Shown in pieces: positions 3,501-25,000 of a stretch of DNA of 64,000 bases (positions within the stretch are counted from its first letter, which is position 1; every line of letters starts with the position of its first letter). The notes beneath the pieces are model-generated. The model saw nothing but the letters and a program-made list of their open reading frames with translations. It had not been told where the DNA came from and searched no databases. The DNA is from Psilocybe cubensis (Eukaryota). The DNA lies in NCBI GenBank assembly GCA_017499595.2, contig CM039006.1, positions 2,356,001 through 2,420,000 on the forward strand, in the 5' to 3' direction. The position numbers and the translations under genes are program-made.

Positions 3501-5206
3501 CGTGACGAGGGAAGGCCACGATGTAATTCTGAAGCATATCGTCATCGTTTCGTGGCTGATCCGTACTAATCATTCCTACAGGTCGATAACCACAGTGATG
3601 ACAATGACTATCAGAATCAGAAGCAAATGATCGAAGCAAAGTTGAAAGAACTAGTAAGTATTTTAGAACATCATTTTATTAAATCATGACAAAACTTTGC
3701 GATGACAGATTTCAATGATGCGGGCTGTATTTTGTGACACCCATGGTAGACGCGAAAACGACGATGAAGACGGAAAAAATAGTGAACAAGACGAGCAAGA
3801 CGAGGACTTGGATCCTTGGCCGGCGAACAGCAAACGCTCAAGGTGCGTTCAATGGCGGCTGGGGCGCAAAACTAAGCGATCTCGAAGGAATTTCAGGCGC
3901 AGAATGAGGGGTGCTTCGCGCTCTCCCAACAAGCTCCGCGGGTCCGACTCCGACTAGTGGGCAGACAACGAGGTATGGGGTTGTGCGCTGGGCAATGGCC
4001 GTGTTAGACTGTTGAACGAGATTTTAAACCACCCACTGGCAGGACAAATTGGGGTTGGAAAGTCACCGAAGATTATTATATCAAGTAGAGCTTGGGTTAA
4101 TAAATTTAGTATATCAATTGCAGATATTGATGAAGCGACATACTTCATAGATTGAAGAGAATTATTAGACGGGAACATCTCGCGTGTTCGAGAGAGTAAA
4201 TTTGGCTTACAGTACGTGTAAAACAATTGAGACTGGTGCCGCTCGAATACCTGATAGAAAAAAGACGGAGCCAATCTATAGTTGCATAAGCAGGAGACTC
4301 GACGGGAGCCATGTGCAAATCCTGTATATTCCAAGTCCCGATATCGTGAAATCCAAATTAAAACGGCAACCTGCAAAGAGGGTACCTCGCAGACCGGGTG
4401 CTTACAGTAGGCAGCGTCGTACAAAACATAAAGTTATGGCAGCATTCAACGTTCAATTCTTGAATGTAGGTGGGTGCGTCGTTGAATAAGTGAGGTCTGT
4501 AAAGCAATGAGGCGGCACATGTGCTGTAGAATATGTTTCCTGCACTGATAGCAAAGATGATTCCTCACCTATGTTTGTGACGCTCGAATACGGGTCTGGC
4601 AGGCGAAGAGGCGGCGGGTGTGCTGTAGAAGGTGTTCTTGGCTTGTGTTTCCTGCCTGATAGTAATAAAATACGATTCGCACCTATGTTTCTGCGTAATT
4701 CACTATCTAAATGAATTGTAGTTCCTCCTCGTTCTGTGTCGCTCACCCGACTATTTCCTCTGCCCTTCCAAGCCGGGTCTATGTCACTTGAACTAAAATT
4801 GTATTACTAGAGTACGCAGCTAGCTAAGTTTATGGTATTAGAGTCTACACTAAAGTGCTACTACTACAGTAAGCTCGTATGCGAACCATCTCTACGTACG
4901 ACGTGCTTCATAGGAGTGAGTGTTGAGAGAGAGGTGGAAAGGCGTCACACCGTCACAAAATCGCCATGATACAGGACAGAAGTTTGATGCCGCTGATGCC
5001 GTGCCACCAATCACGCGCATCACCAATTTGGCGACGGCATGAGCGGCATCGAACTTCTGCGGTACTTGTTGGCGTGCTGGCCATATTCTCACGCTTTCTT
5101 CTTCTTCTGTTCCAACCATGCTCATCTAGCGGGTGAAGTAGCACATATAGACGGAGTAGCGCTGCTATCCATGTAGGCAGTCTAGCGTAGTGTACCATGT
5201 AAATAA

Positions 5207-5510
5207 CACATAAGACAGTTTATTTATAACGTACATTACCTAAGATTTAATAATAAGGATATTACGTGAGACACGGTGGATTTACTCCCGCTACCTAATT
5301 AGGAGATTAGCGTGATGTACGTGTGATTTATCCTGGCAAATCATAGCGTACATGACGTGCCATTTAGCACTAAATGGAGCCGCCGGGTGGCATGCGGGAT
5401 CCGCGTGTCGGGCTGCACGGGAAAAACACGGGCCGCAAATGAACCGGACGGGTCCATCTACATCCCGTGTATTGCAAGCAGACGGATCCGTTTTGACCCG
5501 TGTTGTGCTG
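5207..5510 (+). repeat. Left TIR of the KDZ element (304 bp)
   Basis: Reverse complement of 20569-20872, with no mismatch seen by eye. The inner part is rich in ACGGG/ACGGRTCC motifs. Confidence 0.95.
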
Positions 5511-5651
5511 AGACGGGTCCATTCATCCACCCGCTTCTGTATTCCGACAAATATCCGCCTTGAAGAATCATACATCGGATGACCGTTAATATATGTAATA
5601 AGGTGTATAGATTATACTGGCAGCACATTCCTTTCCACATACCCTGATAGC

Positions 5652-6931
5652 ATGGATTATGCCTTTGAGCTAACCCAATCCCTCTCAAACTACATGAAGG
5701 CACAAATAGCTAGTCGTCTTTGGCATGCAGAACTGCCTAATCAAATCCGGGAAAACTTCAGTGCTGAGACCATGTTTGAGTGCAATCTAGCTGTGGAGGT
5801 GATTTTGCAGGCATTTGAAAATCAAGGTATGCAATCAATAAGCTTTGAAAATTGAGATTAAATAATGTGTGAATGGCAGAATATACGACGTGGGATGCAG
5901 AAGAATATTTGACTCATCTCAGTGCACGTTGCACGGGTCAGAATTTTACCGTTGAGGCTCGCCTGAAAGACAAGTTTTCTCCGGTGCATTCCGCGTTACA
6001 GTACCAAACCCTGCCCGGAACTGTGGTCGATAGTGCAGGCAACATATTGGTGTGGTACCTGCCAGGTATTTTGTCAGAGACAAGGGTGGTGAGTTTTAGA
6101 AACAGACCAATTAATTCATATATTATGCTTTCTAAAGAGTAACAGGAGAGTATGTGGAATTCATTACGGGATATTGAAACAATGATTCACAAGGCGGTAC
6201 CTTTGGCCACAAGCTGGAGGGTCAATGACAGTTACTTTCGACATGAGCCAGGTTGGGTTCAACCTGGAAATATTAACTTCTCCCCGGCATGGTTTCAGCA
6301 AGGCCATGAGGTGAGAAACTTGTATGCTAATTATTATACTGCCTCATATTTTCCTCAGACGTCCAACCCGCTTGAGGTCTCCTTGGACTTGTGTAATCCA
6401 ATTGGACAGGAGTTTATACGAGACACGACGACATCTTCGGCTTTGCTGGGAGCCATCTTGAGCATTATACATCCCGAGCAGTACCGGGCGGGAATGAAAT
6501 TTCTTCAACGGCTTGCTGCGGAACCGGAGCTTGTCCATAAGGCTGAAATATTGAAGCAAATTCTCACAATTTGGAGTTCGCCCTTTGGAGTCATGACCGT
6601 GATCAGCAACCGAGATACACCATACCATCGGGATAATGGGTCGTGCTACTCATGGTACGATTTTTTGATGCCGCTTGGGAAGGGTGAACACGGACGGCTT
6701 GAGCTTCCGGGCCTTGGACTTCGGTACAAGTATGATCCCATGACCCTTGTTGCAATTACCGGCAGGTTGCTTCAACACGGCGCGGTGTGCGATGGAGACA
6801 GGGCAGTCATAGTCTATTACATGCGTAGGACTGTATTTGAAGAGCTGGGAGTCCAAGAGGCAGGATGGTCTACTACGTACGATCTTTTTGCAAATTTACC
6901 GGCCACCAACGCTTTTGATTTTGAAATATGA
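5652..6931 (+). CDS. Fungal TET/JBP-family 2-oxoglutarate/Fe(II) dioxygenase (putative 5mC/6mA-oxidising enzyme), about 4 exons
   Basis: HxD in NRDTPYHRD, distal His in LLQHG, 2OG-binding Arg in GDRAVIVYYMR, plus 'ILVWYLPGIL' and 'FSPAWFQQGH' segments typical of KDZ-linked TET/JBP proteins. Introns at about 5828-5879, 6090-6145 and 6311-6358. Confidence 0.9.
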
Positions 6932-7017
6932 TCAGTTTTTGACTTGGAAGTTGGGTTTGGGGAAGATTTTTTTATATTTCCAAACCAAAACAGTACGAAA
7001 GCTACAGCACAACCAGA

Positions 7018-7294
7018 ATTCTCTGTCCCAGGGTGTTTCCGACGCGTCCGCGCTGAGCTCTTCCAAGGTTACCGGAATCATCGGACTCCGCCGTCGTATT
7101 ACCGGCGGAAAAGGCATCATCCGCCTCCTCTTCGATGTCCTGTGCGAGAGGTGGGCAACTAAGATTCCTCATCCCAGGGTGTTTCCGACACGTCCTCGCT
7201 AAGCTCTTCTGAGTTACCGGAAGCATCTGACTCCTCCGTCGTATCACCGGCGGAAGACTCCTCATCCGCCTCCTCTTCAAAGTCCTGTGCGAGA
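7018..7294. repeat. Diverged tandem duplication of ~130 bp covering the 3' end of the 7159-8783 gene
   Basis: 7018-7149 resembles 7164-7294 (CCCAGGGTGTTTCCGAC...GTCCTGTGCGAGA in both). Confidence 0.8.
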
Positions 7295-8783
7295 TGCTCT
7301 AAAAACGTAGCTGGTGTAGAGGATTCAGTGGTATCAGACGTACTATCAATATCATCCTCTTCTCCCGGAAAAACAGGTCTTGACCTTGCGTTAAAAAGGA
7401 AGGCATTGCTGGTGTGTGCATTTGACGGAGGGCTGACGGAACCGGGCGTAGGCAGAGTATCTGTTGGGAGATGAATATTTGCAGTGTTGGAGGGTGGCGA
7501 ATGATACCAGAGTGGATGAAAAGGTAGTTCCTTGACGGCAATAAAAGAATAAAAAATGTCGTTGATGTAAAATGAAGCGACTTTGAGCTTTGAGACCTCG
7601 AAGGACCGGGCTTGAGCCGTTATAGCGCCCCAACTGTCAGGAGAAGGGTGAACGGGATGCTGAAATTTGTATTTGGCTGAAAGCCCCTTGCCGTTAGAGA
7701 ACGGGAGCTCCTTAGAGTCAATCCACATCTTCTCCAATACAGAATATCTGCCCAAGGCGGCCGAAGAAGTAGTCACTGCTTTATGGGCATTCTTCATTTT
7801 GTCCGCCACATTCCGGCGCAGGTGAGCCAACTCCCTCATTACGCCCGTTAGGATAGGCTGACCGCAGCGGGGACAGTAGGGCGGTCTGTGGTCAGAAATT
7901 GCAATTGGGGATGTTTCATCCCGCGTGTTTGCAACACGGGTCGGCGGATTGGGTTTCCCCGTGGGCGGTGAAAACGCGGAGCCGTGCTTTCCCGTCAACG
8001 CGGATCCGTGCTTCCCCGAGGTGGGGACGGATGTCCGTTCAGCCGCCTTTCCCTTGCCCTTGGGATTGTTTTCTTGATTTCTTGGAGGCCCAGAGGTGGA
8101 TGAACTTGCGCCCTCCTTAGCTTCTTTCCTCTGATTGTTTAGCCGGAGTACCTCTTGTTGGTATTCAGGCAGAACCACCTGGTGGGAAGGACGCAAATCA
8201 GATATAATCCACAGCAATAAAAAAACATACCTTGTTCCAAAATTCTCTTGCTTGCGATTCAACGGTAACAAAGGCAACTTGCCACTCATCGCCTTCAGCA
8301 AATCCGTCCCTCCACCAATATCCCCAGCTCTTGGTCTGATTTAAAATTTCATCATCTTCCCATGCTGACCAGCTTTGATTTAGAGATTCAAATAGAACAG
8401 CTCGATGGTGGGGAGTTCGGTTCAAAACGGCATGTACGCTCTGATTGAGAATTTCTGATATAAAAAATGGAATATCGACTTGGAATCCATTGACATAGCA
8501 GTATCCGAGTACTCTCAGCAGTATAGCCTATCGAGCAGTTCTCAATGCAAGATATAATAGTTCAAAATTACTGTCTTACCACCTCTAGGTCAAGCAAATA
8601 CATCCATTTTTGGCGACGCACGGAGGAAACAGAGTCTCCGTTTGCAATGAACAAACGGTATCCGGCACGGATCCGTGCACCACAAATATGGACATGAACT
8701 TTGGCCAGAGCACGTCGCTCATCATAGGTAAGGAGATGATGTTCGTCCTCGACAGGAGGTTTAAAAAGCCGCGGTAAGTGCAT
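7159..8783 (-). CDS. Multi-exon cargo gene of unknown function (CxxC motif, acidic C-terminus)
   Basis: Consecutive minus-strand ORFs 8568-8852, 8198-8425 and 7159-8301 are separated by GT..AG introns. Contains YCPRCG and a D/E-rich tail. The start MHLPRLF at 8783 is inferred. Confidence 0.6.
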
Positions 8784-8827
8784 GAATTCAACAAGATGAG
8801 ATACAACAAGAATGTTCAAAGAACTGG

Positions 8828-11800
8828 TTAATCTGTAATTATAAATCTCCACACGGACGGATACTCCGGGTTAATTTGACGGAAGACCTTATCCGCGGCC
8901 CGCCCCAGATCATTCCACATGGCAATCTGCTTTTGAGCATTTGCCCTGTGACCAACTAACCTGTCAGGAACAAAATCATGCCGTGCACGCCATGTCTTTG
9001 CCATATACACATAAAATCTGACAGTCCATTCCATTTCCTTTTTTGTCAAGGCCAGCTCCTCTTGCCATCTATTCCTCTGAGCTCGCGCGCGGAGCCAGTT
9101 TAGCCTAAAGACTAAGAAGCCCTTGAGAAAAAAATTAGAAATACAAATAGCAGTACTCACACTCATTAACGTATAATTGATTATCATTGTCCAGGCCCTG
9201 ACGGGATCTCCAAATCCAACTTAGACGGTCCGAGCTTCCTCCGCGAATGTTCGGATCCGACACGGCATTACTATGCTTGCAATCATGGACTTGCAGAATG
9301 GGATATTGTTTCCGAATATTATCCTCGTCTCGCACGCCAGCAGATAAATAGATCATCTTCTGACGGTTTGTGTTGTAGAGTCGCCGGTGCAATTTCCAGG
9401 AAGCATTCAAAAGCTTGACGCCATCCCAAGCACGAGTCCCCATATAGACGGAGTCGGCGGTCCGAACCTGATATTTATACTGCCAAGAAAGCTGGATCAA
9501 GGCTGACCGGACCGCTTCCAGACAGTCCTCTGCGTGGCCATGTCTTATTTGAAGTTCAAGTTTGCGAAGCCCTTTTAAAATGAGGTTTGTTCCCGCGTCA
9601 AGGCCGTCAAAGAAATCTTGTTTGACGGCGGAGGGAAACGGAAGCGGCTGTCGTTCCGGATCCGCGCGGGTAATGTTGACATTTCCAAGATCAGGATCGT
9701 CGTTGTCACTGACTTCATAGTCAAGTATGGGAGCGATGTCCCCTTGAATATCCTCCAAGACATCTTCGCCCATGAAGGTCATAGCGGATCGACAGAAGGC
9801 TTCAACGCGGGTCCGCATGGAGCGACGTTTATTGACCAAGTCAAGTTTCTGCGCGGTGGAAGGATGCTTTCCGAGCTTTCTGACATGGTCCCTGAGCTCC
9901 AATCTAAAAACATGTTAAATTCTGTAGGATGCAATTGAAATAATCGTACTGCGCTTGCTCCAGTTTTAAGCCGGATGATATCCATGCTGCCTTTCCAGTA
10001 GCACCATTAGATGTAAGTTCCATATTTGAAAGATGCAATTCAATTTCTTGGCGTCCAGCAGCCGTTTTCACTTTGCTTGCCATTACCTTGCCAACAGCGT
10101 CGGCCACACCTTGTTCTCGGTCCGCTTCTGCTTTTGAAATTTCATCTTCCCAAGTGTTGATGAGCCCGGAATCTTGTTGATCCGTGATACCCCTATAAAA
10201 TCGGTCTGTGATTCCGGACTGTTCCCGTGCCCGTTTGAACTTTGCAGCAATTGTTGCAGCCATATTAATGGTCTTCTTCCAGTTGGAATCCCCCATGTGG
10301 TCGTCCAAAACCTCTGCTCGATGGGCAGTGGTAGCGGAACGTGTACTCCGGGATGTGTCATTTAACACGGACCACAACGGCTCCAGGATTTCTCCGTCAA
10401 TGATTCCCACACCCGGGACATAGGTGGATGCGTAGTTGTAAAGACATTCCGTCTTGTGCCCGTGGACGTGAAATAAACCAATTGCAAAAATCATTTTAAC
10501 AGAAGGTGGCCAATGCATTTTTGTGGACTCTGAGAGACGCCTTGCCAAGTTAACGCAATATTGACAGTTTATATCGTAGATTTCCAAATGTTTTGTGATT
10601 CCCTGTGTGTTGGTAGTTTCCCTGGCCTGAGTCAAAGACCAATCCATGTGCATCTGCTTTTCACCTTTGTCAAAATCGACAACGCTGGATGGACAGAAGC
10701 ATCCGTGCCTAGCGCAAGCGTGTGCCCCAATTCCACGTACTCTCTTACCCGGGCTGACTCTGTTTTCAGCTTTCTGGGCGTGGTAGTTATGACATGTTTG
10801 TTCCTGATATTTTTTGACACGGAAAGTAAGCATCCGCCGTAGAAGATTTTGACACGGAGCGTAAGCATCCGCCGTGAAAGATAAATCATGGTAGATAACG
10901 CACCCGTTTATAACGTGGAGCAAGAGAAATTGCTTCCTTAATGTGCTCCTTGTAAGGGCCCGGAGCAGTCATGTATCCTTCTCCAACGCTCAACCAAACA
11001 TCGTCTCCCTCGTTTTTCTGATTGAGGTGATCTGCTTTGAAATTACCATCTGCAACATAACTACGTATGTACAGATTGCTACTTGCTGTTAATTGTAGTC
11101 ACCCTTGAAGAATAACTAAAACTTGCCTATCAGCATCATCAATCCAGGTATCAGGTAGGTTTATTCCAGGCTGTGGACAGGCGGGGCAGAATAAGGCCAA
11201 CTTCCCTCTCCTATCTTCAACTTCGGGATGATCCTCGGTCCGCGTCATTTGTGGTACAGGCGGACCATCTAATCCGCCGTGTCCCAGAGACGGGTCCGTT
11301 GACATTCCGACTTCTTGAGACGGACTATCAGATCCGCCGTCAATTGGATCAGATACATTAATACCCATCCTCTCTGGTGATGAATCATGGCAATGACGAT
11401 AGTAAGGGACCACCGCTTCTCTTGTATGCCCTTCTCCGTATTGTCGTCTCAGGACAAGGTCCCTGTATTCTCTACTAAGCCTTCTCAATTCACGATAGCG
11501 GTTCAGCACCTTTTTTGGAAACGCTGGCGAAGTCAGTCTTCGCAACTTTTGGTAATACTGATAAGCCGACGTTTTGCACTCGAGGTTGTCCATCCGAAAG
11601 TCCTCAAGGACCTCAACTGTGAACACAGTTTGAACGTTTTCAAAGCTGGCTGCAAATAATCCCATCTCCAGATACTGTAAATCGATAGACGGAAGGCGGA
11701 CGGACCGGCATGTGCATGTTCGCACGGGCAGATAATGGACTCCGGAGGTGTGCACAATTGCCTTGAAAGGAATTCCATTGTTGTCTGCTGCCTTTGGACG

Positions 11801-12711
11801 AGGTTGGTCCAGATAGGTTGTATCGACTTCCTCGAATAGATCATCGTCTTCATCGTCTCCATCGTCCAGCTCAACCAAATGGGGTACCTCCGGGTCCGCC
11901 AGAAGCTGAGCCGTAAAGGATTCTTGGTCATTGCTCGCAGGAAGCGGATCCAGGTCCAATCCGTGTTCATCTTCAAAGACGGGCGAATTGTTTCCGCCGT
12001 GCCCATGACTCCCGGATGAATTGTTTCCGCCGTCCCATCCTAGGTGGCTCGGATCCGTGGGATAAGGACAACGTTTCCCATTATGACCCAAATACAACTT
12101 GACACCCACTTCCCACAGAGCTCCCGGACGGAAATATAGACCCGTCCACTTCTCAACGCGGTGGAAAGGTGTAAATTGATGGTTTCTTCGCAGGCATTCA
12201 GAACACAAAATTCTAGAGCCAAAGCATTGGCAACATCTCCACACTCCAGACATTCCTTGACATTGCTGACACTGTCCATTCAGATCCGGATCCGGGGCTT
12301 CTCCTCCAATCATTGTTCCAAGATACACCTCTCGTTTCGGGAGCCATTCCCTCAGGTAATCATTTTGAGACTGGATAGGTAAAGTCATCCTGATCATTCT
12401 ACTGAAAACATGTTAAAACATACCTTTCCTCCCGTTCTGTCGTCATCTAGCTGTCTCAGGTTATCAAGTACCTGCTGATCAGTTAGATCTCCCGGATAAT
12501 GAGGTATTTCTTCTTCCAGAATGTTGTGTTCATGGTTTTGGAAAGAGTAAGTCGTTGTTTGAGGGAGGTTTGTTGATGATGATTCTGCAGGAAGTTTGTG
12601 GATCCTCGGCCGCCCTCTCTTTCGTTTCTTGGCCCCACTAGACCAGGAGGCCTCCCGAACATTGGGAAACTCCTCATCCGATCCCCTATCAGGTACTTTC
12701 TTGAAGCCCAT
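8828..12711 (-). CDS. CxC2-domain Kyakuja/KDZ transposase, multi-exon
   Basis: N-terminal Cys cluster (CQQC..CCQC..CSEC..H..PFHRVEKW), CxC2 region (IVHTSGVH..C.C; FCPACPQPGINLP) and KDZ core motifs DGNF, CARHG, GEKQ..MD, YDINCQY, FHVHGH..C, DGEILEPLWS. C-terminal WLRARAQRNRWQEE. No stop seen in the main exons. Confidence 0.93.
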
Positions 12712-13590
12712 GGATGTTGGAAACAAAGAGTCTGACAGCCTGTGAGCGCAGATCTAAATGTAGTATAACATGTTTATTTCTGTAGATAAATTTCCCTCAA
12801 TTATGCCGTTTTAAAGAGGAGAAAAATAGCTTTCATATGACTTATCTTGCAGCATATTTGGATGAGTGAGTGAAATGTTATGAACAAAACTTAATCCAGA
12901 GATGCACAAAATGGACGTGATCCCATCATAAATGTACAATATGATGCAGAACGACCCTTTCAGAACCACACTTTGGAGTGTTTTTGAAATATCTTTTCAC
13001 TGGCTGGCCCCTCATTCCTCCGGCGTATATCATATGAAAGATATTTTTAATAGCTACCGAATGACATTTTTTGTAGAATGTGAATCCTCGTATTTAAGGA
13101 GATATTCTCAATATACTAGAAAATGTGTCAAAATGAGCTCACTGGGATCATTATATTTTTTGAAAAAAATTATGCATTTGAATACCTCTCATGGTCTCTG
13201 AGATGACTGCCGTTTTGGGTTTCACAAGTTTTGGGTGAGAAGACGTGAATTTGCATTTTGTGTTTCTGTATCTTTACAGCCATCTGACAAGAATTTAAAA
13301 CCTTGTAAAATTATCTTTATATAAAGCGCTAAATGTTTACAAAATTCCATGTTTATTGATTGAATGCAGAGGGAACTATTGCAAAATCATGAGGTCAATG
13401 TATGTGACAGCGACCAGCATGCTTTGATCATCGTGGCCGACGATGAAGCGGGATTACCTGATTGGGAAAAATATGACATCACATCATTTATTTAGTATGA
13501 TCGGAAGCTTATTTTATCTCCGTATAACGTGAGATTTGACCAGATCACACAGATACTCATCGATAAGCTACTTGTTACATCACTGCAATT

Positions 13591-15901
13591 ATGCCCACCA
13601 ATGCATCCCCCGACGCGGATCCGCTTCCTTCTACCGCAAATGCCACAACCCACAACGGACCCAGAAACGGACAGACGGCGGAGGGTGACTTTCCGCCGGA
13701 AGAATCAAATATTTGGACAACAAAGGAAATGCGCGTGTTGAAAAAGCATGTACAGCCCTACAAAGATACATCAAAGTCATCCAAAGCAGACTACATACAG
13801 AACACTGTCATACCTGAGCTGCAAGCTACATGGGATCACAGATACTCTAGACGTGCTAGGAAGGAAGATAAGCAACTACACAAAGAATGGAAGGTGAAGA
13901 AGCATGTGAGCTCGTTGTTTCTTTGAAAATTTTGTTACACACATAAACCATCACAATAGCGAATATTTAATTGGTTTAGAAACCATGCGTCAAATCGAAT
14001 TGGTGTAAAATTGGAAGGATTGAACTCCCGTATAACCTTTCAGACGGTATTCCGTGAGGAGAAGTCGGCAGAGATTGACTCCGAGGTTGCGCTTCTATCA
14101 GGGAATGCTGCTCGTAGAAGTAAAGATTGGATGAAGTTTTATCAACAAGGACGTAAGCAGGTTGAGGCCAGATTGACTCAGGAGGAGCGGGACAGGTTCA
14201 TGGAGATCCTCGAGGAATGGAATAAGAAAGGTGTTTCAAAATCAATGAAGGCAAAGTGAGTCGGTGGAACTTGTTTCCGCCGTCAATCTGACATCTGCAG
14301 GACTGCTGCCAGGCAAGGCAGAAAAATACTTCGACAAATGGAGAAACTTAAGTGGCAGAGAATGGGTATGAGGTCCATTACCTTTGAGGGGCATTATGAT
14401 ATTGAGGGTAAAATCGAATACTCAATGTAAGTGTTAAACACGGCATGAACAAGTTCCGCCGTGAATGCTTACGGCGGAAACTTTATCCGCCGTAAACACC
14501 CTACGGCGGATAAAGTTTCCGCCGTAAGCATTCGCGGCGGAATAATTTGGCCCGTATTAATGTTGACTGATGGGCATTGAAGGACCCAGACAAGCGATCT
14601 AGCACTCGACGATGTCAGAATTCCTTCCTTTGGGCAACTCTTTCCATCCGAGTTGGCCGCTTTTCGCAGAGCGTTTGTTCAATACCTCGTCCACATTTCA
14701 GAAATAGAGAAGGGTGTGGCCAATCCAGCACTGCCAGATGCATCGTTTCATGAAAAATCCCTCAAGTTTAGCAGCAATGGATTTCCAATAGTACCTAGTC
14801 CTATCTATGGCTCAACTGGGAGAGAAGTCGCTTATGCACAAAAGTCAATTATTAGAATTTACATGAACAAGGTTTATGGTGTGTAATTTGTCTATGTCCT
14901 CAACAAACTTGCTAACTATGTATACAGCTTTAGCCAAGGACAGGCCTGGTTCAAGTGTTCCTTGGGATGCTCTTGAAAGGCGTTCTGCAGAAATGATTGA
15001 TCCAGAGTATTGGCCAAGTTCAATCCCCGTGACGGATCCGAGCCGGCTCCGCCTGGAGTCAACCTCTGCAATTCTCAAGCTATGGAGGGACCGTCAAGCC
15101 CAAGGAGACATCCCCTTTAAATTTTCAAAGGTTTTTGGAAATGGCTATGATATTATGGAACCTCTCTATCCGTCCAACTTGTTTGACGGCCTAGAAGCCC
15201 ACCCGATACCTCCACCTCCTGCAGCAATAACCAAACGTCGCCTGAGGCAAAAAGCTATACGACTTCAAACCCAATCTTCAAGCGACTCTGAATCATCCAA
15301 TCTGTCAGAGTTTGATAATGGACGGGGCAGTCCGGCATCCGCGATGCCACGCACTACTGCCAGATTTGAAGTCACGCCAGAGACGGATGAGACTCCTACC
15401 GACGCACCTTCAAGATCTAGCGAGCCACCCTCTCTACCAAGTAGATCCAGCCCAACAATTGTCAATCCATCATCCAGCCCAACTCCAGAGGTTGAGGAGG
15501 CGCCTCCCAAGCCAGCTAGAAAGATTATGCCAAGAAAAAGAACAAAGCCATATGTCGGAACGGCGGAAATGGACGGACCCGATGAAGAGAGTTCTGTACC
15601 CCCCCCAGTTAAGCCAAAACCAACTAGAAGGATTCAACCTAGGAAAAGAACAAAGCCCTACTCAGATCCACTTGACACAGTGGAAGAAGATGGAGTCCAA
15701 ACAGGAACAACCCAAGACACGGATAATACACGGGCCGGCAGGGACGTGACTTGTGATGCCTTTGTGGAGACAGTAACAAGTCCAGATACGGATGAAACAC
15801 GGGCCCGCAGGAATGTGACTTCGGATGCCTTAGCACTTCAGGAAGCAAGTCTGCTTGCTGTAGCAGGTAAAAGACAAAGAAAAAAAACTTTGAAAGCCTA
15901 G
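13591..15901 (+). CDS. KDZ-associated alpha-helical/HMG-like protein with a disordered S/P/T-rich C-terminus, multi-exon
   Basis: Exons include ..RIFNWFRNH.. and FREEKSAEIDSEV..WMKFYQQGRKQVEARLTQEERDRFMEILEEWNKKG (HMG-box-like pattern). ORFs 13591-13926, 14011-14259, 14653-14886 and 14876-15901 are linked by GT-AG introns. Confidence 0.65.
14454..14542. repeat. Intronic 89-bp near-perfect hairpin built from TCCGCCGT units
   Basis: 41-bp arms (14454-14494 and 14502-14542), one mismatch, 7-nt loop AACACCC. Confidence 0.9.
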
Positions 15902-16166
15902 CTGTTGAAGTAGATTCATGATACCTATTGAATGTGATGCTTTTTATTCTTATCTTGATGTTTCTCAAACATGTTTTCACACAAAATCAAAACAGAAAGC
16001 GGGTTCATTAAAAATCATCAAGTGCTACTTTTTGGGAGAGATATAAAACAGATGAGCACATGAGAGTAAAAACTATATACAGTCCAAATATTAAAAATTG
16101 TACAATGCAATCTATGAGACAAGGCAAAAAAGGAGACCAAAAAAAGTTACAAAGATTTGAAATACA

Positions 16167-18741
16167 CTACTTTTTTTGGGCCTTGGGTTTTTTGGGCGAG
16201 CGCGATGCTTCAGCCAGAGTCGTTTCCGCCTTTCGCTTCCGTCCAGCCCTTGTCTTTGTGGCTATGTTCGACGCGGGCAGCGTGGACGCCACGATCTCAA
16301 CATCCTCCTCCACAATTTCAACCTCGTCGCTGTCCGAGGGATCAGACAACTCCGATGAGTGTCCATTCCCGGATGGCCCAGCCTTGGAGGATGGCTTAGC
16401 CTTTGACAATGGCTTAGCCTTTGAGGATGGGCCGGCCTTTGACGATGACGATGGCGCGGCCTTTGACGATGGTGCACCCTTTGACAACGGTGCGGCCTTT
16501 GACGTCGAACTTCGAGGACGTGGAGCTGGGAGAGGGGGTGGTGGAGACAGGGAAAGGACGGGTGGTACCGGTGGGAGCGAGGGTCGGCCAGCTGGGGGGG
16601 GCGAAGGCGCTTCTGGAGTCGAACCGGGCAAGAATAGCTCTGTTGGTGGCGCAGACACGGCAGGGAAGACGGGTGCGGGTGGAGGTGGGGGTGGGGAAGG
16701 GAGGACAGGTGCTGGCGGTGGTGGAGGAGGGGAAGGGAGAATGGGTGCTGCTGGAGGTGGAGGTGGGGAAGGGAGGGGTGCTGGCGGTGGTGGTGGGCTG
16801 GGGGATTGTGGCGCAGAGGTGGGTTCACGGGTCCGCGACGGACCCGATTCTTGTTCGACCTCCGTCTTGGAGGGTTCTGCTGCCTGTTTGGGGGCGGGAT
16901 TCCTTTGTTCATCCTGCTCCAGCAAAACCCCGACCACGTACTGAACGTCCTGGATCGCCTGCTTGATGTTGTTGAACATCGTGACGGAAAGCGAAGTGTT
17001 TCCTGCCACTTGTTCTTTTGCCGTGGTCCACTCGGCCTTCAGCTCTTGGAAGCTGTCCTCGACGGTCTTCATCCTCTTCTCCACCGCCAAGTTTGTCTCG
17101 GCGAACGTTGCAATCCGTGCGTTTATCGCCGTCATGGACGCGGAAAGGCCATCCATCCGTTCCATCAGTCGGCCTTGTCGCTCAAACAGCTGCACAAGCA
17201 GCTCTCCCACATCCTCGGGGAACGACCCTTCCCCGGCCTTCCCCTTCGCCGGAACATCCTCTCCCTCCTCCAACTTCAACACCTCCCTGTAACTTCCCAG
17301 CGGCGTCGAGAGGTTGAATTGCCCGGCGACAGTGTTGCGTCCCGGGTAGAAACGTCCCGGGTAGAAACTGCAGTGAATCTTGCGAGACTTGCAAGACTCG
17401 CAAGATTGGTGCTTTACGGGGACGAGAGGCTCAGTGCCTGTCTCTCCCTTGACATGGCACGGCACCTTGAATTTGGTGCATCCCGTGCACCTTTCCACCA
17501 TATCCACCATCCCCTCCGGCACCTGGCGCGCTTTCTCGGATCTCGACCGCGCCTTCCTGATGGGGGGGATATTGTCCTGGTTGGCGTCCTTCTTTGCAGA
17601 CCGGGTGAGCATCTTCCGGGTGGGGGTGGTAGGCGGGGCCTCTTGGTCATCGCCTTCGTCGTCCTCGTCGACGTCGGCGTCCGCGTCTTCGTCCGTGTGG
17701 CTTCCTATGATTGCTTTGCTCTTGAACTTCCCCTGCTTGGACTTCGCCAATCTTTCCAGCTTCTCCCTGTACGCTGGGTGACCAGGCATGTTGGAGGCGG
17801 TGATGTGGGGAATGATTTCCCCCTTCCTTGTCCGTGGGCCCCTGTAGTCCGCTGGAGCCAACTGAATGGACTCCATGGGGTCCGCCGCTTTCCGTTTGCC
17901 CTTGTCTTTGTGGGCGTCTGTCACGGGTCCGTCTTCCACCGGGGGTTCGACTGCCTTGCCCTTGCCCTTCTCGGCCCGTCTCTTCTCCGTCTCCTCCTTG
18001 TTCCTCTCCTCGTCTGTCTCCTGCTCCTGCTCCTGCTCCCTCTTCCTCCTCTCCTCCGCCTTCTGCCTCTCCTGCTCCCTGGTCTTCCTCTCCTGCTCCC
18101 TCTTCCTCCTCTCCTCCTTCCTCCTCTCCTCCACCTTCTGCTTCTCTTCCTCCCTCTTCCTCCTCTCCTCCTCCCTCTGCCTCTCCTCCTCCTCCCTCTG
18201 CCTCTCCTCTTCCTCCTCCCTCTTCTTCTTCTCCTCCCTCTTCCTCCTCACCTCCCTCTTCCTCCTCTCCTCCACCCTCTGCCTCTCCTCCTCCTCTTGC
18301 TCCTCCTTTTCCCTCCTCTTCTCTTGCTCTTCCTCCTCCCTCCTCTTCCTCTGTGCCTCCTGGCCTTGCTGGTATGCCTTGAAATTTGCGACTTGATGAT
18401 GCAAATTTGCCCAGTCGACCTCGAACCTTGCTACCTGCTTGCCGTCCTTGCCCTGGCTGGTCTTGTATGAATACACGACAGGGCTTGCGACATAATCCAC
18501 GAGGCGGAAGTTGGCCGCGTCCCTGACGTGTTCTTGACACAGTGGAACCTATTTGGATGAATTTTTTTTGTTCAGTAAGTCTTATGCTCAAGGGATATCG
18601 ATTACTCACCAAGTCCCTGTAGAGCTGCTCCAACTGAGCGTTGAACGCGCTTTCGCCATTGCGGTAGCACTCTGTAAAGGTTTTTTCCCAGTCAGCAAGG
18701 CGTTGGGCGAAGGTGGCGGTGGTGGAAGATGAAGAGGCCAT
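16167..18741 (-). CDS. Zn(II)2Cys6-like DNA-binding protein with an E/R/K coiled coil and a Pro-rich tail (~840 aa, 2 exons)
   Basis: Exon 18741-18610 splices in frame to exon 18548-16167. Six-Cys motif CTGC-x6-C...CESC-x6-C (RCTGCTKFKVPC..SCESCKSRKIHC), followed by a heptad-repeat region. Confidence 0.75.
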
Positions 18742-19224
18742 TGGGAAAGCGTTTTTTTTGGGGGGGAAGACGCGTTAATGGGTGAGGCACGGTAGAACGT
18801 GGGGTGGTGATCGTGGTTGGAGTTAGTCTAAAAAAAGTCTAAAAAAAAGCGGTCCCGCAAAACAAAACCATACACAAACATGTACAATCTGAGTCATGTG
18901 ATTTCTTCACCAGATCCAGTTTGTGCAAAAGTTGCTAAGTTCGATACACGGGTGAATCTATTTCCGTGTCATGGAGAATCCTCGGATAGTATTGTATTCC
19001 GTGAGATATATAAACAAGCCCACCCAGTTGCACTTTCTGGACTGTATGTCCTCCTACAACTTTATTCCCACCTCTAGCAAAAATTCCCCCATTGACTACA
19101 CCAGTCTCAACAATCTTACCAGGCTTCTCGAAAAACTGAAGGAACCTCCTCCCGTAAAACCTATAAAATGTAAGACTAATTGCATTAATTCAAGTAAATT
19201 TAAATTGATTTCTGAGCATCAGCA

Positions 19225-20476
19225 ATGTCTTCAAATATTAGCAACTCTAAGGAAAGCAAACGCACAGCAAGGACGGATGACCTGGCTCCGCCGCCAATGC
19301 CAGTCATTCCAGATAACCTGGCTCCACCCCCTATGCCTGTTATTCCAGCTAACCTGGCTCCTCCCCCTATGCCAGTCATTTCATCTAACCTGGCTCCGCC
19401 CCCTATGCCAGTCATCCGGAAAGACCTGGCTCCGCCGCCAATGCCAGTAATTCCAGCTAACCTGGCTCCACCCCCTATGCCAGTAATTCCAGCTAACCTG
19501 GCTCCACCCCCTATGCCTGTTATTCCAGCTAACCTGGCTCCGCCCCCTATGCCAGTCATCCGGAAAGACCTGGCTCCGCCGCCAATGCCAGTAATTCCAG
19601 CTAGCCTGGCTCCGCCCCCTATGCCAGTCATCCGGAAAGACCTGGCTCCGCCGCCAATGCCAGTAATTCCAGCTAGCCTGGCTCCACCCCCTATGCCAGT
19701 CATTCCAGCTAACCTGGCTCCGCCGCCAATGCCAGTCATCCGGAACGACACGGCTCCGCCGCCAATGCCTGTCATCCGGAACGACTTGGCTCCGCCGCCA
19801 ATGCCAATCATTCCAAATAACCTAGCTCCTCCCCCTATGCCTGTCATTCCACCTACCCTGGATCCTCCCCCTATGCCTGTTATTCCAGATACCCTGGATC
19901 CTCCACCTATGCCTGTCATCCGGGATGATGCGGCTCCGCCGTTGATGGCAGCACATGTTTCATACACGTCTGTCGTCGACAAAATCATTATGGACTCTCG
20001 TCCAGCTATTTCCTCTGAGAGGAAGCAAGGTCGCTATTCTCCACCCCCTGAAGCATGCCACCTGCTCCTTCAAAACCCTTATTTTCGAACCTACGGCAGG
20101 TTTGATCCCATGGGCGGCTACCCCGGTTCGCCTCCCACCCAGTCTGACATTGAGTTCGAGAATGTAACAGATCAGACGGCGTATTTTAACCCTCCTTTTC
20201 TATATGTATGTACTCAGATATTACCAAGCACTAGATACTGACAACTATTTTAGAATTATACCGAGCAGCAGCTACGGGCAACATACGACCAAATAATTGA
20301 CAGTTCCGTCGGCGACAGTAGTTATGACGGAAAGGTTACAACGTTCAAGAACCTCCGGCTGCATCAGCTGCAGTCAGAGATTCTGACTTATAATGCGCTG
20401 GAGGAAATTGACGCTGGGCTGGCAGGGATTGAATCGAGTTTGGAAAAGCATTTGTATACCGGTAGAGATGAATAAA
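19225..20476 (+). CDS. Pro-rich tandem-repeat protein with a helical C-terminal domain (2 exons)
   Basis: 18 full and one partial 12-aa repeats (xxLAPPPMPVIx). Intron at ~20206-20253. The last exon ends ..KHLYTGRDE*. Confidence 0.7.
19276..19947 (+). repeat. 36-bp coding minisatellite (~18.5 units)
   Basis: Repeated CTGGCTCC.CC.CC.ATGCC.GT.AT.C.. units with synonymous variation. Confidence 0.95.
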
Positions 20477-20568
20477 TTATTTTTGGAGCCCTTGTGCTCA
20501 TTGACTTGCAATACCCCATAAATAACCCTCCCTCTCTGGGAAGACACGGGTCAAATGGGTCCGTCTGA

Positions 20569-20872
20569 CAGCACAACACGGGTCAAAACGGATCCGTCTG
20601 CTTGCAATACACGGGATGTAGATGGACCCGTCCGGTTCATTTGCGGCCCGTGTTTTTCCCGTGCAGCCCGACACGCGGATCCCGCATGCCACCCGGCGGC
20701 TCCATTTAGTGCTAAATGGCACGTCATGTACGCTATGATTTGCCAGGATAAATCACACGTACATCACGCTAATCTCCTAATTAGGTAGCGGGAGTAAATC
20801 CACCGTGTCTCACGTAATATCCTTATTATTAAATCTTAGGTAATGTACGTTATAAATAAACTGTCTTATGTG
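20569..20872 (-). repeat. Right TIR of the KDZ element (304 bp)
   Basis: Reverse complement of 5207-5510. Confidence 0.95.
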
Positions 20873-22079
20873 TAAATAATACAAATACTACTACAGGGAG
20901 CGAAATGGGGACCGAATGATATTGTGCGTGAGGTGTAATCGAAGTGCCAACACAGATGTTAAGCACGTATGAGATCTCTACGCTCGCCGTAAGTAACACA
21001 ATTTTCTGCACAGTGTTGTATATTGGGTCAGTCATTCAGCGCAGATACAGGTCAGCGAACAAGACATCGCAAAAGTTTCGAAGCATGTCTGGTAAGTCGC
21101 AACTCCAGTGTACCCGCCGTTTGCTAACCATGCGATTAGACGCACACGATTCTCACTCAAGTCGTTCGTTTCACCATTTCCTTCCTCTTGTTCTACACAG
21201 GTATGTTTCGTTCTGTCTACCTAATTTTCTGTAGTAACTTACATAGTATAGCCCATCTTCTATCCCGAACACTAACGATTCCTACTGACATCTCTGGTTG
21301 GCTGCCACTTCACTTAGGCTACTTCTACAACTGTTTCACCTCCGTTTCGCGGCGGAGCGGCACAGAAAAGACGAGAGCATTGTCGTCCATGTGCGTCACC
21401 TCGCCAGGCAAAAGTCGTGCCCATCACGACGCAGTTCACTAGGACGCTCAGCAACATCTTTGGCGTGCTCGACTACTTAAGTTGGAGCTTGTTCACCGCT
21501 GCCTTCGACGAGGAACGCTCTGATTCTCTAGTGAGGTTGGCGTATGGTCTCCTCAGTGATCTGGCCAAATACTACTCGAACGGACGGCTTAAGCAGCATT
21601 CCTGTCCAATTGGCTTACATCAAACTGCGATCTGGAAGTTGTATTCCAGATGATACCATGAACACCATGCCTCGGGCATGCGAGATTTTTCGAGGGTATT
21701 TTTTGTATCCTTTCCCTCTTACTTACGACTTAGGCTTAGGGACTGCGGACAGTGACGTTAGACGGGTAATTCGGCGGCTTTTACAACAATTATTTTTCTC
21801 CCTGTTGTTCGTATTATAGCTGTTGCTACAATCTGGCTAGGAATATTGCCATGCATAACAGTGTGGACGTCTTTTCCATGGGAGAATCCGCGTACGTACT
21901 CATCCGGGATCTCAATCTAATATCCACTTCTGATAGCTTCCTCTATCGATAGAATTCGCTACGAAGCCCCTGGGCCGCCATCCAACAGCATTTTTTCTCC
22001 AAGGTTTCTTCACATCCGGCATGGTTAGCGCCCTCGGCAGACATATTCACCGGCCTGATCATCGCATCGCTCATTGTAC

Positions 22080-25000
22080 TCATCTTCGTTGCCGTCTTCC
22101 TCCTCCGTGAATGGATGTCGCAGAATGCTCGCCTGGGCGTATTCGAAGAGGAAGAGCTCCCCGATCTGCCCCCCGTTTACGCGCCTCCACCGCAACCACA
22201 ACTGCAACATCAACCCAGGCTCGTCCGCCATTTTGCGCCGCTCGACCCTGCCAGCCTGAACCTTGAGCGTGGAGGGAACGCGCCGCTTTCAATGAGCGTC
22301 AGATCGAGGCTCTACGTATGGAGGCAATGCGTCAGAATCTGGACACAAACATCGCCGTGGACCCCAACAGATGGCGAGCAGACGCCCAAATAGCCGCTCT
22401 TAGGGATAGGAAGAAAAAGATGAATGCCAAAAGCTTCAACCCACATCATACGGTACGCGATGAAAACCAGGGAGAAACGGACCAGGAGGATGTACAATTT
22501 GAATTAGAGCAAGCGAGGAAGAAAAAATTCAACCAACATGTTACAGTGGCGCAGGACGGGGACGAGCCTGGGTTAGTAAGTCCCAGCGAATCGGACGATA
22601 CAGAGGATGATGAGGACGATTTCCATGAAGACGATGAAGTCGACAATGAGGGACATGGGCATGGAAACGGGCGTAGACATCGACGTCCACATCCTCTCCG
22701 ACGGCCTCATTTCGAAGAAGAAAAAGACGACGAAGACGACGAGGAAGACCAGGCAAAGTTGTGCAGTGGGGTGCTACCACCACCACCAACCCCTTTTTGC
22801 GGGTTTTCGATTCGACTGTTGACTCTTTGTTTGACTTTGCCTTTCGATCTGAAGCGGGGAGAATGGCGTGGTATACCCACTGCCCACTTACACCTACACC
22901 AACACCGTTTATCGACTATCGACCTTCACATTGGCTTTTGGTTTGCCAACCCAGTTTGTGTTCTACGGTTACACCCTACGCCTACACCGACGCTGACACT
23001 AGCGCCTCAGCTCATCTTACCTCACACCGACTTGCAGTACGCTCTGAACATCTTACACTGTTACACACCACATATCACACCATAGCATAGCATATCTTAC
23101 ACAACACCCACCAGACAAACTCGAATTCCGACTTATAAACCCAAACCCAAACACGAAATCAAGACGAAATGAAAGCACTAGACACGAACCTGTACACTCC
23201 CATCATCTCATCATCTCATCGTGGCGCTTTTGGTTTTCCCCACTGTATGATGTCTGCGTCTACTTTAACCATTCACTTCGTCCCGCCCACACCGACGTCA
23301 TCGTCGTCGTCTTCATCCGCTGCATCGTCCGCGTCGCTATCCACGCTGCCGACATCGTCGAATCCAACCCCCGCTCGTCGACTCTCACCACCACCACCAC
23401 CACCACCACCACCACCCGCGCCGATCTTTCTATCTCTACCACCACCACCACGGCCGCCGCGCACCTACTCCCATGCACCGACCACCATCACCTGTGATAA
23501 CAAACACGACACTGCACACACCAGCACCCACACACAACCTCACGCTCATACGCACCGCCGCGGAGCTCATCGAACTCGACGTGAAACTGCGCAGTACGCA
23601 CCCGGGCCTCAAAATCCCATCGCTGCCCATCGACCCCGCCGGTCTGCCCCTCGCGCGCGGGTTCATGCGCGTGCGGCTTGATGAGGTGAGGCAGAAGATG
23701 GACGCCGAGGAACAGGCGAGGGATGTGTGAGTGTTTTTTTATTTTATTTTTTTATTTCTTTCTTTCTTTCTTTTCTGGTTTTTGGGGTTTTTTGTTTTTG
23801 GAGTGTGGTTTTTAGAGAGTATGTTTTTTGGATTGTTTTTTTTGTGGGTTTATTTGGATAGATTTCGGTGGAATGGACAGATTCCAGTTTCGGAGGTTCT
23901 CTATTCCATCCATCTTGCAGAGGTACTTTGAACGAGCACGGTTCTGGTTCTTGTTCATGTTGTTGTTTGTTCGAGGGTGTATCCTTCGCCTTCGTCTTCA
24001 TCTTCGCATAGATCGTTTTGGCCGATGCATGCATGTACGGGTTGATTGATACGGGTGGATAGATGGTTCAGGACGGATAGCAGGATGGATAGAAGAACCG
24101 TCGGATGGGCTTTTGCTTTTACTTTTATTTTCTTTGCTTTTATTGTATCCCATTCTTTTTTATCCTATTCTATTCCCATTCTTATCTCTAATTTTCTAAA
24201 CACAACTAACACCCCTTTTCCTCTTTTCCCTCCCTTCCCCTACACTTATTTAACTTACTACAACCTACAAGCCTCCGCACTCAATTCACCCAAACACACG
24301 AAGACATTGCAACATCCTCCTCGCGCTGCTCCCGACGCTCTCGGAGCAGGTGCTGCGCGCGATGGATGTGGATGCGGTGAAGCGGGAGTTGCAGGCACGG
24401 TCGCGGGTGGGTAAAGGGAATAGGGAGCAGCAGGTGTTGGGGATTGGGAATGGGAATACACCAGCACAAGCACCGGCGAATAAGAGGAGTGTGTACCCAC
24501 TTGCACCGTACCCTTCCACTCCACCTCCGCCCCAGCCTCGTCAAACGCCTCCACAACAGGCTCAGGCTCAGCCCCAGCCTCATCAAACGCTTCACGCACC
24601 TGCTCACCATCACCCACACCAGCGCCCGCACCGTTCACACTCTCGCCGCCCGCACCCGTGTTCGTGCCGCGCGCCGCGTCGTTGCATTCCGCGTCGTTGT
24701 ACCCGTTCGCCTGTTTCTTTGCACTCGCCGTACCTTTCGCTTTCAGGGACAGAGTCAGAGTCTATTTCCATCTCGCACGACACGCAGGAGATATCGTCGT
24801 CGTTTGTATCGGACAACGGGTCTGTGAGTCGTAGTTGGGTCGTTGAGGGTTCGGGTGAGGGTTCCGAACAAGGAGGTGCAGGGGAGAGAGCGCCATCGCC
24901 TGCTTTGAGCTCTGTTTCTGGTGTTTCCCGTTTCGCATTCGAATTCGACGGATGAAGGGGAAGGTGGGGATGAAGATGAAGATGGTACGTCACTTCTCTT

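Follow-up and report, generated by a model that had tools for sequence, protein, structure and literature searches.

Two questions about the DNA transposons of fungi, namely for what reason they have TET genes and by what means the enzyme might favor its own element over all other methylated DNA, bear on one stretch of the Psilocybe cubensis genome (GenBank assembly GCA_017499595.2, contig CM039006.1, positions 2,356,001 to 2,420,000, forward strand). This stretch of 64,000 nucleotides (nt), the whole of which we refer to as the window, contains a Kyakuja-type KDZ transposon of 15.7 kb (5207-20872) that encodes a TET/JBP dioxygenase, a KDZ transposase, a partner protein with HMG-like and GTF2I-like regions (gene 3) and a protein with a Zn2Cys6-like cysteine cluster (gene 4). 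An earlier note on this DNA had pointed to a CpG-containing octamer, TCCGCCGT/ACGGCGGA, scattered through the element and had proposed that an element-encoded DNA-binding protein uses it to direct TET. We found that a cis code of phased CGG triplets, comprising CGG-N2-CCG, CGG-N11-15-CCG and CGGCGG, runs through the whole element and that no exact word in it is commoner than the octamer. On balance, we favor the reading that the code of this young element consists of putative binding sites for an element-encoded CGG reader, which would mark the element as self.

A phased-CGG code within the element

A pattern search over both strands of the window returned 17 exact copies of the octamer, starting at 7087, 9625, 10833, 10868, 11273, 11333, 11993, 12026, 13675, 14276, 14455, 14471, 14486, 14503, 14518, 15560 and 19935, exactly where the earlier note had placed its approximate count of 17. 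Dinucleotide-preserving shuffles of the window contained 1.22 copies on average and 4 at most, with none of 100 shuffles reaching 17. All copies lie between 7087 and 19942, and the 48,334 bases of the window outside the element contain none, so that the claimed absence from host genes holds for this window. An unbiased count, which amounts to the k-mer enrichment test proposed earlier at the scale of the window, likewise identified ACGGCGGA as the commonest 8-mer of the element, where it occurs 17 times, compared with 0 times elsewhere in the window. Because the sequence around the 17 copies differs from copy to copy, the octamer is a short word and not part of a longer repeat.

Mapping the copies onto gene models based on annotated homologs placed them in introns, intergenic DNA and coding sequence, often as close pairs, just as had been described. 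The pairs are either direct repeats 33-60 nt apart or inverted repeats with spacers of 7-9 nt. Eight of the 17 copies are intronic. Two of these (10833 and 10868) lie in a KDZ intron (~10807-10902), one in each unit of a 35-nt tandem duplication (10812-10882, minus strand); one (14276) lies in intron 1 of gene 3, and the five at 14455-14518 lie in intron 2 of that gene (~14428-14578), where they form, together with one GCGGCGGA, a palindromic cluster of alternating orientation with 7-9 nt spacers (14455-14542). The copy at 7087 falls in the spacer on which the TET and KDZ genes converge, the copy at 19935 in a 36-nt tandem array, and the copies at 13675 and 15560 in low-complexity stretches of gene 3. 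Four others (11273, 11333, 11993 and 12026) occupy predicted lineage-specific insert loops of the KDZ transposase that have no counterpart in most homologs, leaving the copy at 9625 as the sole octamer in conserved KDZ codons. The coding copies translate as S-A-V, [D/H]-G-G or T-A-E and therefore do not specify a repeated peptide.

Treating the octamer as the unit, as the earlier note had done, proved to be too narrow. The signal is a far denser arrangement of phased CGG triplets, which fills the terminal inverted repeats (TIRs) as well. With three long arrays masked and 200 shuffles for comparison, the element contained 93 CGG-N11-15-CCG dyads (shuffle mean 11.0, maximum 22) and 22 CGG-N2-CCG dyads (mean 2.0, maximum 7). 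Direct CGGCGG occurred 25 times, and direct dyads with an N8 spacing occurred 28 times versus 7.3 expected. When all 64 triplets were scanned, CGG alone stood out (z 17.5); the next signal, everted CCG..CGG, reached 6.0, all others stayed below 4, and the host part of the window gave no comparable triplet-dyad signal. A second private word, the palindrome CGGATCCG, was found 10 times against 0.58 expected, each time inside the element and twice within the TIRs. The contexts ACGG, CCGG and CCGC together account for 50% of the CpGs in the element versus 24% in host DNA.

The element holds 109 of the window's 119 N11-15 dyads. Their density per kb was 19.7 in the TIRs, 10.8 in gene 3, 9.3 in the region of the 36-nt array, 6.3 in the KDZ gene, 4.3 in gene 4, 2.8 in the TET gene, 1.1 between the KDZ gene and gene 3, and 0.21 in host DNA. 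We conclude that the code is private to the element within the window, is specific to CGG, is densest in the TIRs and extends through introns, variable loops and spacers.

Private codes and conserved genes in related loci

We compared the element with its relatives on metagenome contigs that carry a KDZ alignment. These comprise 80 loci, of which 34 reach 6 kb or more and are called long here. For each locus, we took the top 8-mer that was not of low complexity, determined how many 300-nt bins contained it and compared this number with 20 shuffles. A dispersed 8-mer exceeded every shuffle by at least 2 in 14 of the 34 long loci but in 0 of 3 host chunks. All 14 private words contain CpG, and all 14 contain CGG or CCG as read; examples are ATGCCGGA, present 25 times in L059, GGCACCGA, 19 times in L053, and CGGCCGAG, 18 times in L041. 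The sequence around these words is not conserved. We also scored the top inverted dyad of each locus across 60 triplets and 21 spacings. This dyad was based on CGG/CCG in 17 of the 34 long loci and in 0 of the 3 host chunks; among the 19 loci whose z was 6 or higher, the number was 12. Its spacing was specific to the family: N5 in L006 and L024, N3 in L011 and L018, N2 in L033, L038, L053 and L075, N0 in L041, and everted N3 in L046 and L064. Either a word or a CGG dyad was present in 24 of the 34 long loci. Thus, related KDZ families do carry different motifs, a possibility that had been put forward as a check, and these take the form of family-dependent CGG words or spacings.

On a tree of transposase domains, neighboring loci had related words (ATGCCGGA, ATGCCGGG and ATGCCGAG). 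In pairs of loci that are 72-78% identical, the per-base identity of motif sites was 0.88-0.96 versus a background of 0.73-0.78, based on 3-4 sites per pair. Motif sites moderately avoided the conserved coding sequence of the relatives, with 72 of 196 falling within high-scoring segment pairs versus 103.5 expected. We considered CpG decay as the reason that some loci have no code and found no support for it, as CpG content is not lower in those loci (CpG observed/expected 0.84 versus 0.79, p 0.16). In several relatives, the private word also lies in long regular tandem arrays, with a period of 34 nt in L074 (14003-14962), 24 nt in L011 (5276-5958) and 18-54 nt in L053 (2037-3317), some of them near contig ends and with the look of subterminal arrays. 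Word arrays are near a contig end in L074 and L072 and internal in L011 and L053.

The relatives share genes as well as codes. Gene 4 contains a cluster of the form CX2CX6CX18CX2CX6C (17370-17489, minus strand), and a scan of six-frame open reading frames (ORFs) for the Zn2Cys6-like six-cysteine pattern found it in 15 of the 80 loci, in none of the ORFs from any of 10 shuffles, and once in the whole window. Where a contig extends 7 kb or more upstream of the KDZ domain (14 loci), the pattern is present in 12 cases, and 9 loci show the order and orientation seen in the window, Zn(+), gene 3(-), KDZ(+). An alignment of 14 segments with the pattern has six invariant cysteines and one nearly invariant lysine. 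Compared with solved structures, the profile of these segments matched AlcR (0.0071), Leu3 (0.013), Lac9 (0.05), Ppr1, Gal4 and Pho7; solved Zn2Cys6 factors made up 8 of its 17 matches, and most of the others were Mdm2 RING chains. Pfam Zn_clus was a recurrent best match, in 6 of 10 related ORFs, with one score above the cutoff (L053, 23.0 bits) and five weaker. A tblastn search of gene 4 against the 80 loci produced 0 matches, and a word-based protein search returned just three proteins, all from the same species. That gene 4 is a lineage-specific gene was an idea that we abandoned when the cysteine-pattern scan gave its 15 positive loci.

Relatives of gene 3 lie upstream of KDZ, and divergent from it, in 29 of the 34 long loci, so the HMG-like gene is a conserved one too. 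TET was detected in 15 of the 80 loci and 12 of the 34 long loci, on contigs that are partial, and in L022, L030 and L043 it lies downstream on the opposite strand, as in the window. We conclude that KDZ relatives share a set and order of four genes, encoding a Zn2Cys6-like protein, an HMG/GTF2I-like protein, the KDZ transposase and, often, TET.

Ends, copies and genes of the element

The element is bounded by an inverted repeat of 305 nt that is 100% complementary (5206-5510 to 20569-20873) and that includes one base of the target-site duplication (TSD). From the inverted-repeat search and the reading of the ends, the TIR arms span 5207-5510 (left, plus strand) and 20569-20872 (right, minus strand) and are 100% identical over 304 nt. 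The left arm begins with CACATAAG and contains six CGG-N11-15-CCG dyads, or 19.7 per kb, and one CGGATCCG. The termini, CACATAAG...CTTATGTG, are of the CA..TG type, and the TSD is the 7-bp sequence TAAATAA (left copy 5200-5206, right copy 20873-20879). Section 18 of Kojima 2025 (PMC12730594) gives Kyakuja elements a 7-bp TSD, 5'-CA..TG-3' termini and families without TIRs. Kyakuja-1_LB and Kyakuja-2_LB are described as lacking TIRs, whereas the element has perfect ones of 304 nt, a difference from those families and not from the superfamily. Either this family differs from those described or a recent event replaced one end with a copy of the other.

Public sequencing runs (X7, X10, X11 and X14) contained evidence of polymorphism and of further copies. 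A joint from 5197 to 20871, which skips 15,673 nt (the element plus the TSD) and corresponds to the empty site, was present in a contig of X7 and in 134+159 reads of X14. Loose-ended X14 reads ran into dissimilar flanks at both termini, 367 at 5207 and 345 at 20872 (agreement 0.35 and 0.34). Copies vary by the gain or loss of whole tandem motif units. A third unit in that KDZ intron, at 10823 and with an extra TCCGCCGT, was found in 133 X14 reads and in contigs of X7, X10 and X11, and 6 reads showed TCCGCTGT; the palindromic cluster was 63 nt shorter in some X14 reads and in an X7 contig; and the 36-nt array differed in length among copies, as manifested by X14 joints going back 288 and 72 nt. 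We conclude that the element is young, polymorphic and multicopy and that its activity is current or recent.

X10 and X11, which are much larger runs with other organism labels, yielded short contigs at a depth of 2-8 that were near-identical to the element: stretches of 270-840 nt differed from it at 0-10 positions. Across the roughly 1147 variant places that X14 showed between 3000 and 22999, C>T (197) and G>A (189) outnumbered A>G (113) and T>C (100), an excess in the direction expected for deaminated methylated cytosines, which fits a methylated multicopy element. X14 depth in the flanks (3000-5200 and 20880-23000) was uneven and above single-copy, summing to ~180 to 510, and a joint from 4227 to 3985, going back 243 nt, marks a tandem-duplication variant in the left flank; the element may be nested in another repeat. 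Pfam gave no match to the flanking ORFs, and the window outside the element contained no paralogs of it.

The TET/JBP gene (5873-6928, plus strand) has two exons, with the catalytic ORF at 6143-6928. Its assignment in the earlier note stands: the ORF matched Pfam Tet_JBP with an E value of 9.5e-19 and 67.7 bits (cutoff 34.9), and all 8 of the sequences aligned share H162, R163, D164, H212 and R220, which include the HxD motif, the distal histidine and the arginine that binds 2-oxoglutarate. The domain looks intact, and it is predicted to oxidize 5-methylcytosine (5mC). For CcTET, a relative, activity has been shown according to section 26 of Kojima 2025 (PMC12730594), which describes TET function as unvalidated and speculates that its action is non-target-specific.

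The KDZ transposase gene (7162-12711, minus strand) contains 7 octamers, 11 CGG-N2-CCG dyads and 35 N11-15 dyads, and its product matched the Pfam families KDZ (1.2e-37) and, toward the N terminus, CxC2 (1.5e-21). An annotated homolog of 1691 amino acids, 99% identical, maps from 12711 to 7162. A 145-nt tandem duplication (7026-7294; 1.8 copies, 87% matches) covers the KDZ stop codon, so that the 3' spacer repeats C-terminal coding DNA; one of its copies holds the octamer at 7087 and a partner, CCGGCGGA, and the other copy has TCCTCCGT.

Gene 3 (13591-15898, plus strand), the conserved partner of KDZ, holds 8 octamers and 25 dyads. An annotated protein of 668 amino acids was 100% identical across the query ORF, and the layout comprises an HMG-box-like region at residues ~120-205 and a GTF2I-like repeat at ~330-400. 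A representative protein library contained 280 relatives at E values of 1e-3 or below. The gene 3 protein matched no Pfam family at threshold, and the window's own protein had no domain match at 0.01. A profile of 45 family members matched solved GTF2I repeats (2dzr at 0.0028, 2dn5 at 0.0048 and 2d9b at 0.058, with two chains above), 10 of the 45 members matched Pfam GTF2I weakly (E values of 1 or below), and 4 of the 45 matched HMG_box_2 at E values of 0.01 or below, one of them exactly at the 22.4-bit cutoff. In the protein of the window, the counterpart of this HMG-like match lies at residues ~150-200. A complex prediction for the TET ORF with residues 30-480 of gene 3 gave a score of 0.01, which is no answer and counts neither for nor against an interaction.

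Gene 4 (16170-18741, minus strand) encodes 838 amino acids, comprising a charged coiled region, the Zn2Cys6-like cluster and then a helical region; an annotated 838-residue homolog, 99% identical, maps to 18741-18607 and 18548-16170. A stretch of about 150 residues rich in E, K and R precedes the cluster, and a proline-rich tail is built of 18- to 39-nt DNA repeats (17980-18351 and 16371-16793). Around the cluster, the Zn-pattern ORFs of other loci likewise have a basic composition and low complexity. Further along lies the 36-nt tandem array (19276-19919), with 17.9 copies of units that carry TCCGCC(C/G)C, one of which has the octamer at 19935. It is open on both strands, which read as APPPMPVIP-type and GIGGGAR-type peptides. 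We dropped its ORF as a candidate fifth gene, given that both strands are open and that 0 of 80 related loci match. The nearest proteins to those of the element are Psilocybe cubensis hypothetical proteins, and the Protein Atlas returned only unnamed Basidiomycota clusters.

What the code may do, and how it compares with known systems

Factors of the Gal4 type recognize CGG triplets and owe their specificity to how these are spaced and oriented. Because this fold reads CGG, the Zn2Cys6-like protein would be the likeliest reader of the code, and the combination of a family-private CGG pattern with a conserved Zn2Cys6-like gene makes an element-encoded CGG reader the most economical explanation. 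We therefore suggest that the dyads are sites for a sequence-specific protein of the element, the foremost candidate being the Zn2Cys6-like protein in dimeric form; the HMG/GTF2I-like partner or the transposase may contribute. Such a reader would mark self DNA from the TIRs through the body of the element. At the ends it would serve transposition; that dyads are densest in the TIRs points to a part in recognizing those ends. Along the body it would activate or de-silence the genes of the element, as TnpA does for Spm and VANC for VANDAL.

Several observations weigh against this explanation. The earlier note's Zn2Cys6-like protein was upheld in its cysteine pattern, with 12 of 14 loci sharing it, but not at the level of the domain match, as the gene 4 cluster scored 18.1 bits against Pfam Zn_clus (E 0.0029), short of the cutoff of 21. 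Measured against the six-cysteine form of Gal4-type clusters, CX2CX6C-loop-CX2CX6-8C, the two halves of the cluster align to solved domains in swapped order, and the loop between them has 18 residues, where 5-12 are usual for Zn2Cys6 clusters. No code signal was found in 5 of the 15 loci with the Zn pattern (L022, L030, L048, L078 and L080), and 10 of the 34 long loci have neither a word nor a CGG dyad; these contigs are partial, with undefined element boundaries. The dyad spacing is broad (N11-15) and takes no single fixed value, in part because the octamer itself contains two CGGs. Finally, dyads are scarcest, at 1.1 per kb, in the promoter region that separates KDZ from gene 3, and this is unexpected for a simple activator.

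The dyads could instead be plain subterminal and internal sites used for transposition alone, at which the transposase or its partner would recognize the ends and bring them into synapsis. CACTA elements have subterminal repeats of this sort. The peak of 19.7 dyads per kb in both TIRs fits such a role, as do the word arrays that relatives have near contig ends (L074, L072) or in internal positions (L011, L053), and a DNA-binding partner beside the transposase is typical of several superfamilies, as section 14 of Kojima 2025 describes for Nuwa (PMC12730594). About 97 of the 109 dyads, however, lie beyond the TIRs, spread over 15 kb that include introns and protein loops where transposition has no need of them. 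The intron units expand and contract among copies, and motif sites at the 3-4 positions available per pair are kept above background. We thus consider an exclusive role in transposition unlikely. The CGG words could also be co-opted sites of host Zn2Cys6 factors, with the cysteine-cluster protein of the element serving some other function. CGG triplets are a common currency of the large fungal Zn2Cys6 family, and the cluster in the window falls under the Pfam threshold. Against this, the patterns differ among close KDZ families and follow the transposase tree, the Zn2Cys6-like gene is kept in nearly all loci with enough upstream sequence, dyads are rarest within the element precisely in the promoter region, and the host DNA of the window has just 0.21 dyads per kb. 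These points make host factors a very unlikely explanation. Some copies of the word do sit in tandem units, as they would if slippage, internal duplication or biased mutation had produced the pattern neutrally. The sequence next to the words is unconserved, though, a single triplet of 64 is affected, and a like pattern with other words recurs in independent families, so that we give a neutral origin hardly any credence.

The remaining alternative builds on the element-encoded reader and is the full model of the earlier note: the reader, bound to its motif, would recruit the element's own TET, and 5mC would be oxidized and lost specifically on self DNA, making the element a self-contained, sequence-specific anti-silencing module. 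In favor of this model, an intact-looking TET domain lies within the same element, every private word has a CpG (in 14 of 14 loci and in this element), and TET is equally placed and oriented in L022, L030 and L043. The excess of C>T and G>A (197+189) over A>G and T>C (113+100) in X14 fits a methylated element. The plant protein TnpA recognizes CpG motifs that occur in clusters and depends on demethylases of the host (Sasaki et al. 2026, preprint 10.64898/2026.08.24.746577), and intronic VANC motifs expand as tandem repeats, as in this element (Hosaka et al. 2017, PMC5735166). On the other side, words, dyads and readers are present in many loci in which TET was not detected, which argues for a TET-independent origin of the code, although the loci without TET are a weak point because the contigs are partial. 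The TET gene is itself poor in dyads (2.8 per kb) and has zero octamers, and section 26 of Kojima 2025 (PMC12730594) takes published maps of oxidized methylcytosine as non-target-specific TET action. Considering both sides, we regard TET recruitment as a doubtful addition to the reader. We are similarly hesitant about the broader idea that the private CGG code, the Zn2Cys6-like reader and the HMG/GTF2I-like partner form a portable, co-evolving KDZ/Kyakuja module that would aim TET at self DNA. TET may simply be a cargo that profits from self-marking, a step outside the explanation supported here.

An element-encoded CGG reader would nonetheless supply concrete parts with which to address the question of TET: the private code and the conserved candidate readers offer defined probes, proteins, and families with different codes. 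If true, it would extend to fungi, with a different protein fold, the sequence-specific self-activation known from the plant transposon proteins VANC and TnpA, and the full model, if true, would place a complete sequence-specific demethylation system aboard a fungal transposon. Even without the link to TET, the four-gene Kyakuja architecture and the CGG-dyad signature aid the annotation of these large elements, and a compact pair of reader and site could serve as a targeting tool.

The literature that we searched contained nothing linking KDZ or Kyakuja to a dispersed motif or to a Zn2Cys6-like or HMG/GTF2I-like gene; Iyer 2014 lay outside this search, and a prior description of KDZ accessory genes is possible. 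The passages of PMC11343200 that concern KDZ make no link to a dispersed motif or to accessory genes of these kinds, and a search for literature on DNA methylation of transposons in Psilocybe cubensis found nothing relevant. In the accessible text of Kojima 2025 (PMC12730594), the words 'subterminal' and 'zinc' are absent, and 'motif' refers to protein motifs in the 12 of its 20 places that were covered. The TET-bearing Kyakuja elements of Agaricomycetes covered there have in common with this element a KDZ transposase with CxC2, an AG-type TET, a 7-bp TSD and CA..TG termini.

Like Gal4-type factors, the gene 4 cluster has six cysteines in two CX2CX6C halves, one of them basic and rich in lysine, and is accompanied by CGG triplets with family-specific spacing and orientation. 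It differs from them in its swapped halves, long loop and sub-threshold score, in having no fungal-specific middle domain, and in being borne by a transposon. The resemblance to VANC and TnpA is one of logic and not of protein family. As described in the available part of PMC5735166, VANDAL21 shares with this element a dense, short, private motif in introns and non-coding DNA, the gain and loss of motif units, and motifs that are specific to the family; the spread of dyads through introns, loops and spacers and the turnover of intron units thus resemble the targets of VANC. VANDAL21, however, is a plant Mutator-like element, VANC is an unrelated protein, the motif YAGTATTAY has no CpG, and the element encodes no demethylase, according to that same text. 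Motif binding and hypomethylation have been demonstrated for VANC (PMC5735166), whereas in the mushroom element binding is a prediction and demethylation a possibility. The code also resembles the targets of TnpA from Spm/CACTA, an accessory protein that binds clusters of CpG motifs at the ends of its element and so brings about hypomethylation and activation; these motifs differ by family and diversify together with the lineage (10.64898/2026.08.24.746577). The sites of TnpA are confined to the termini and the demethylases are the host's own ROS1/DML enzymes (10.64898/2026.08.24.746577), whereas the element described here carries its sites throughout and encodes a TET of its own.

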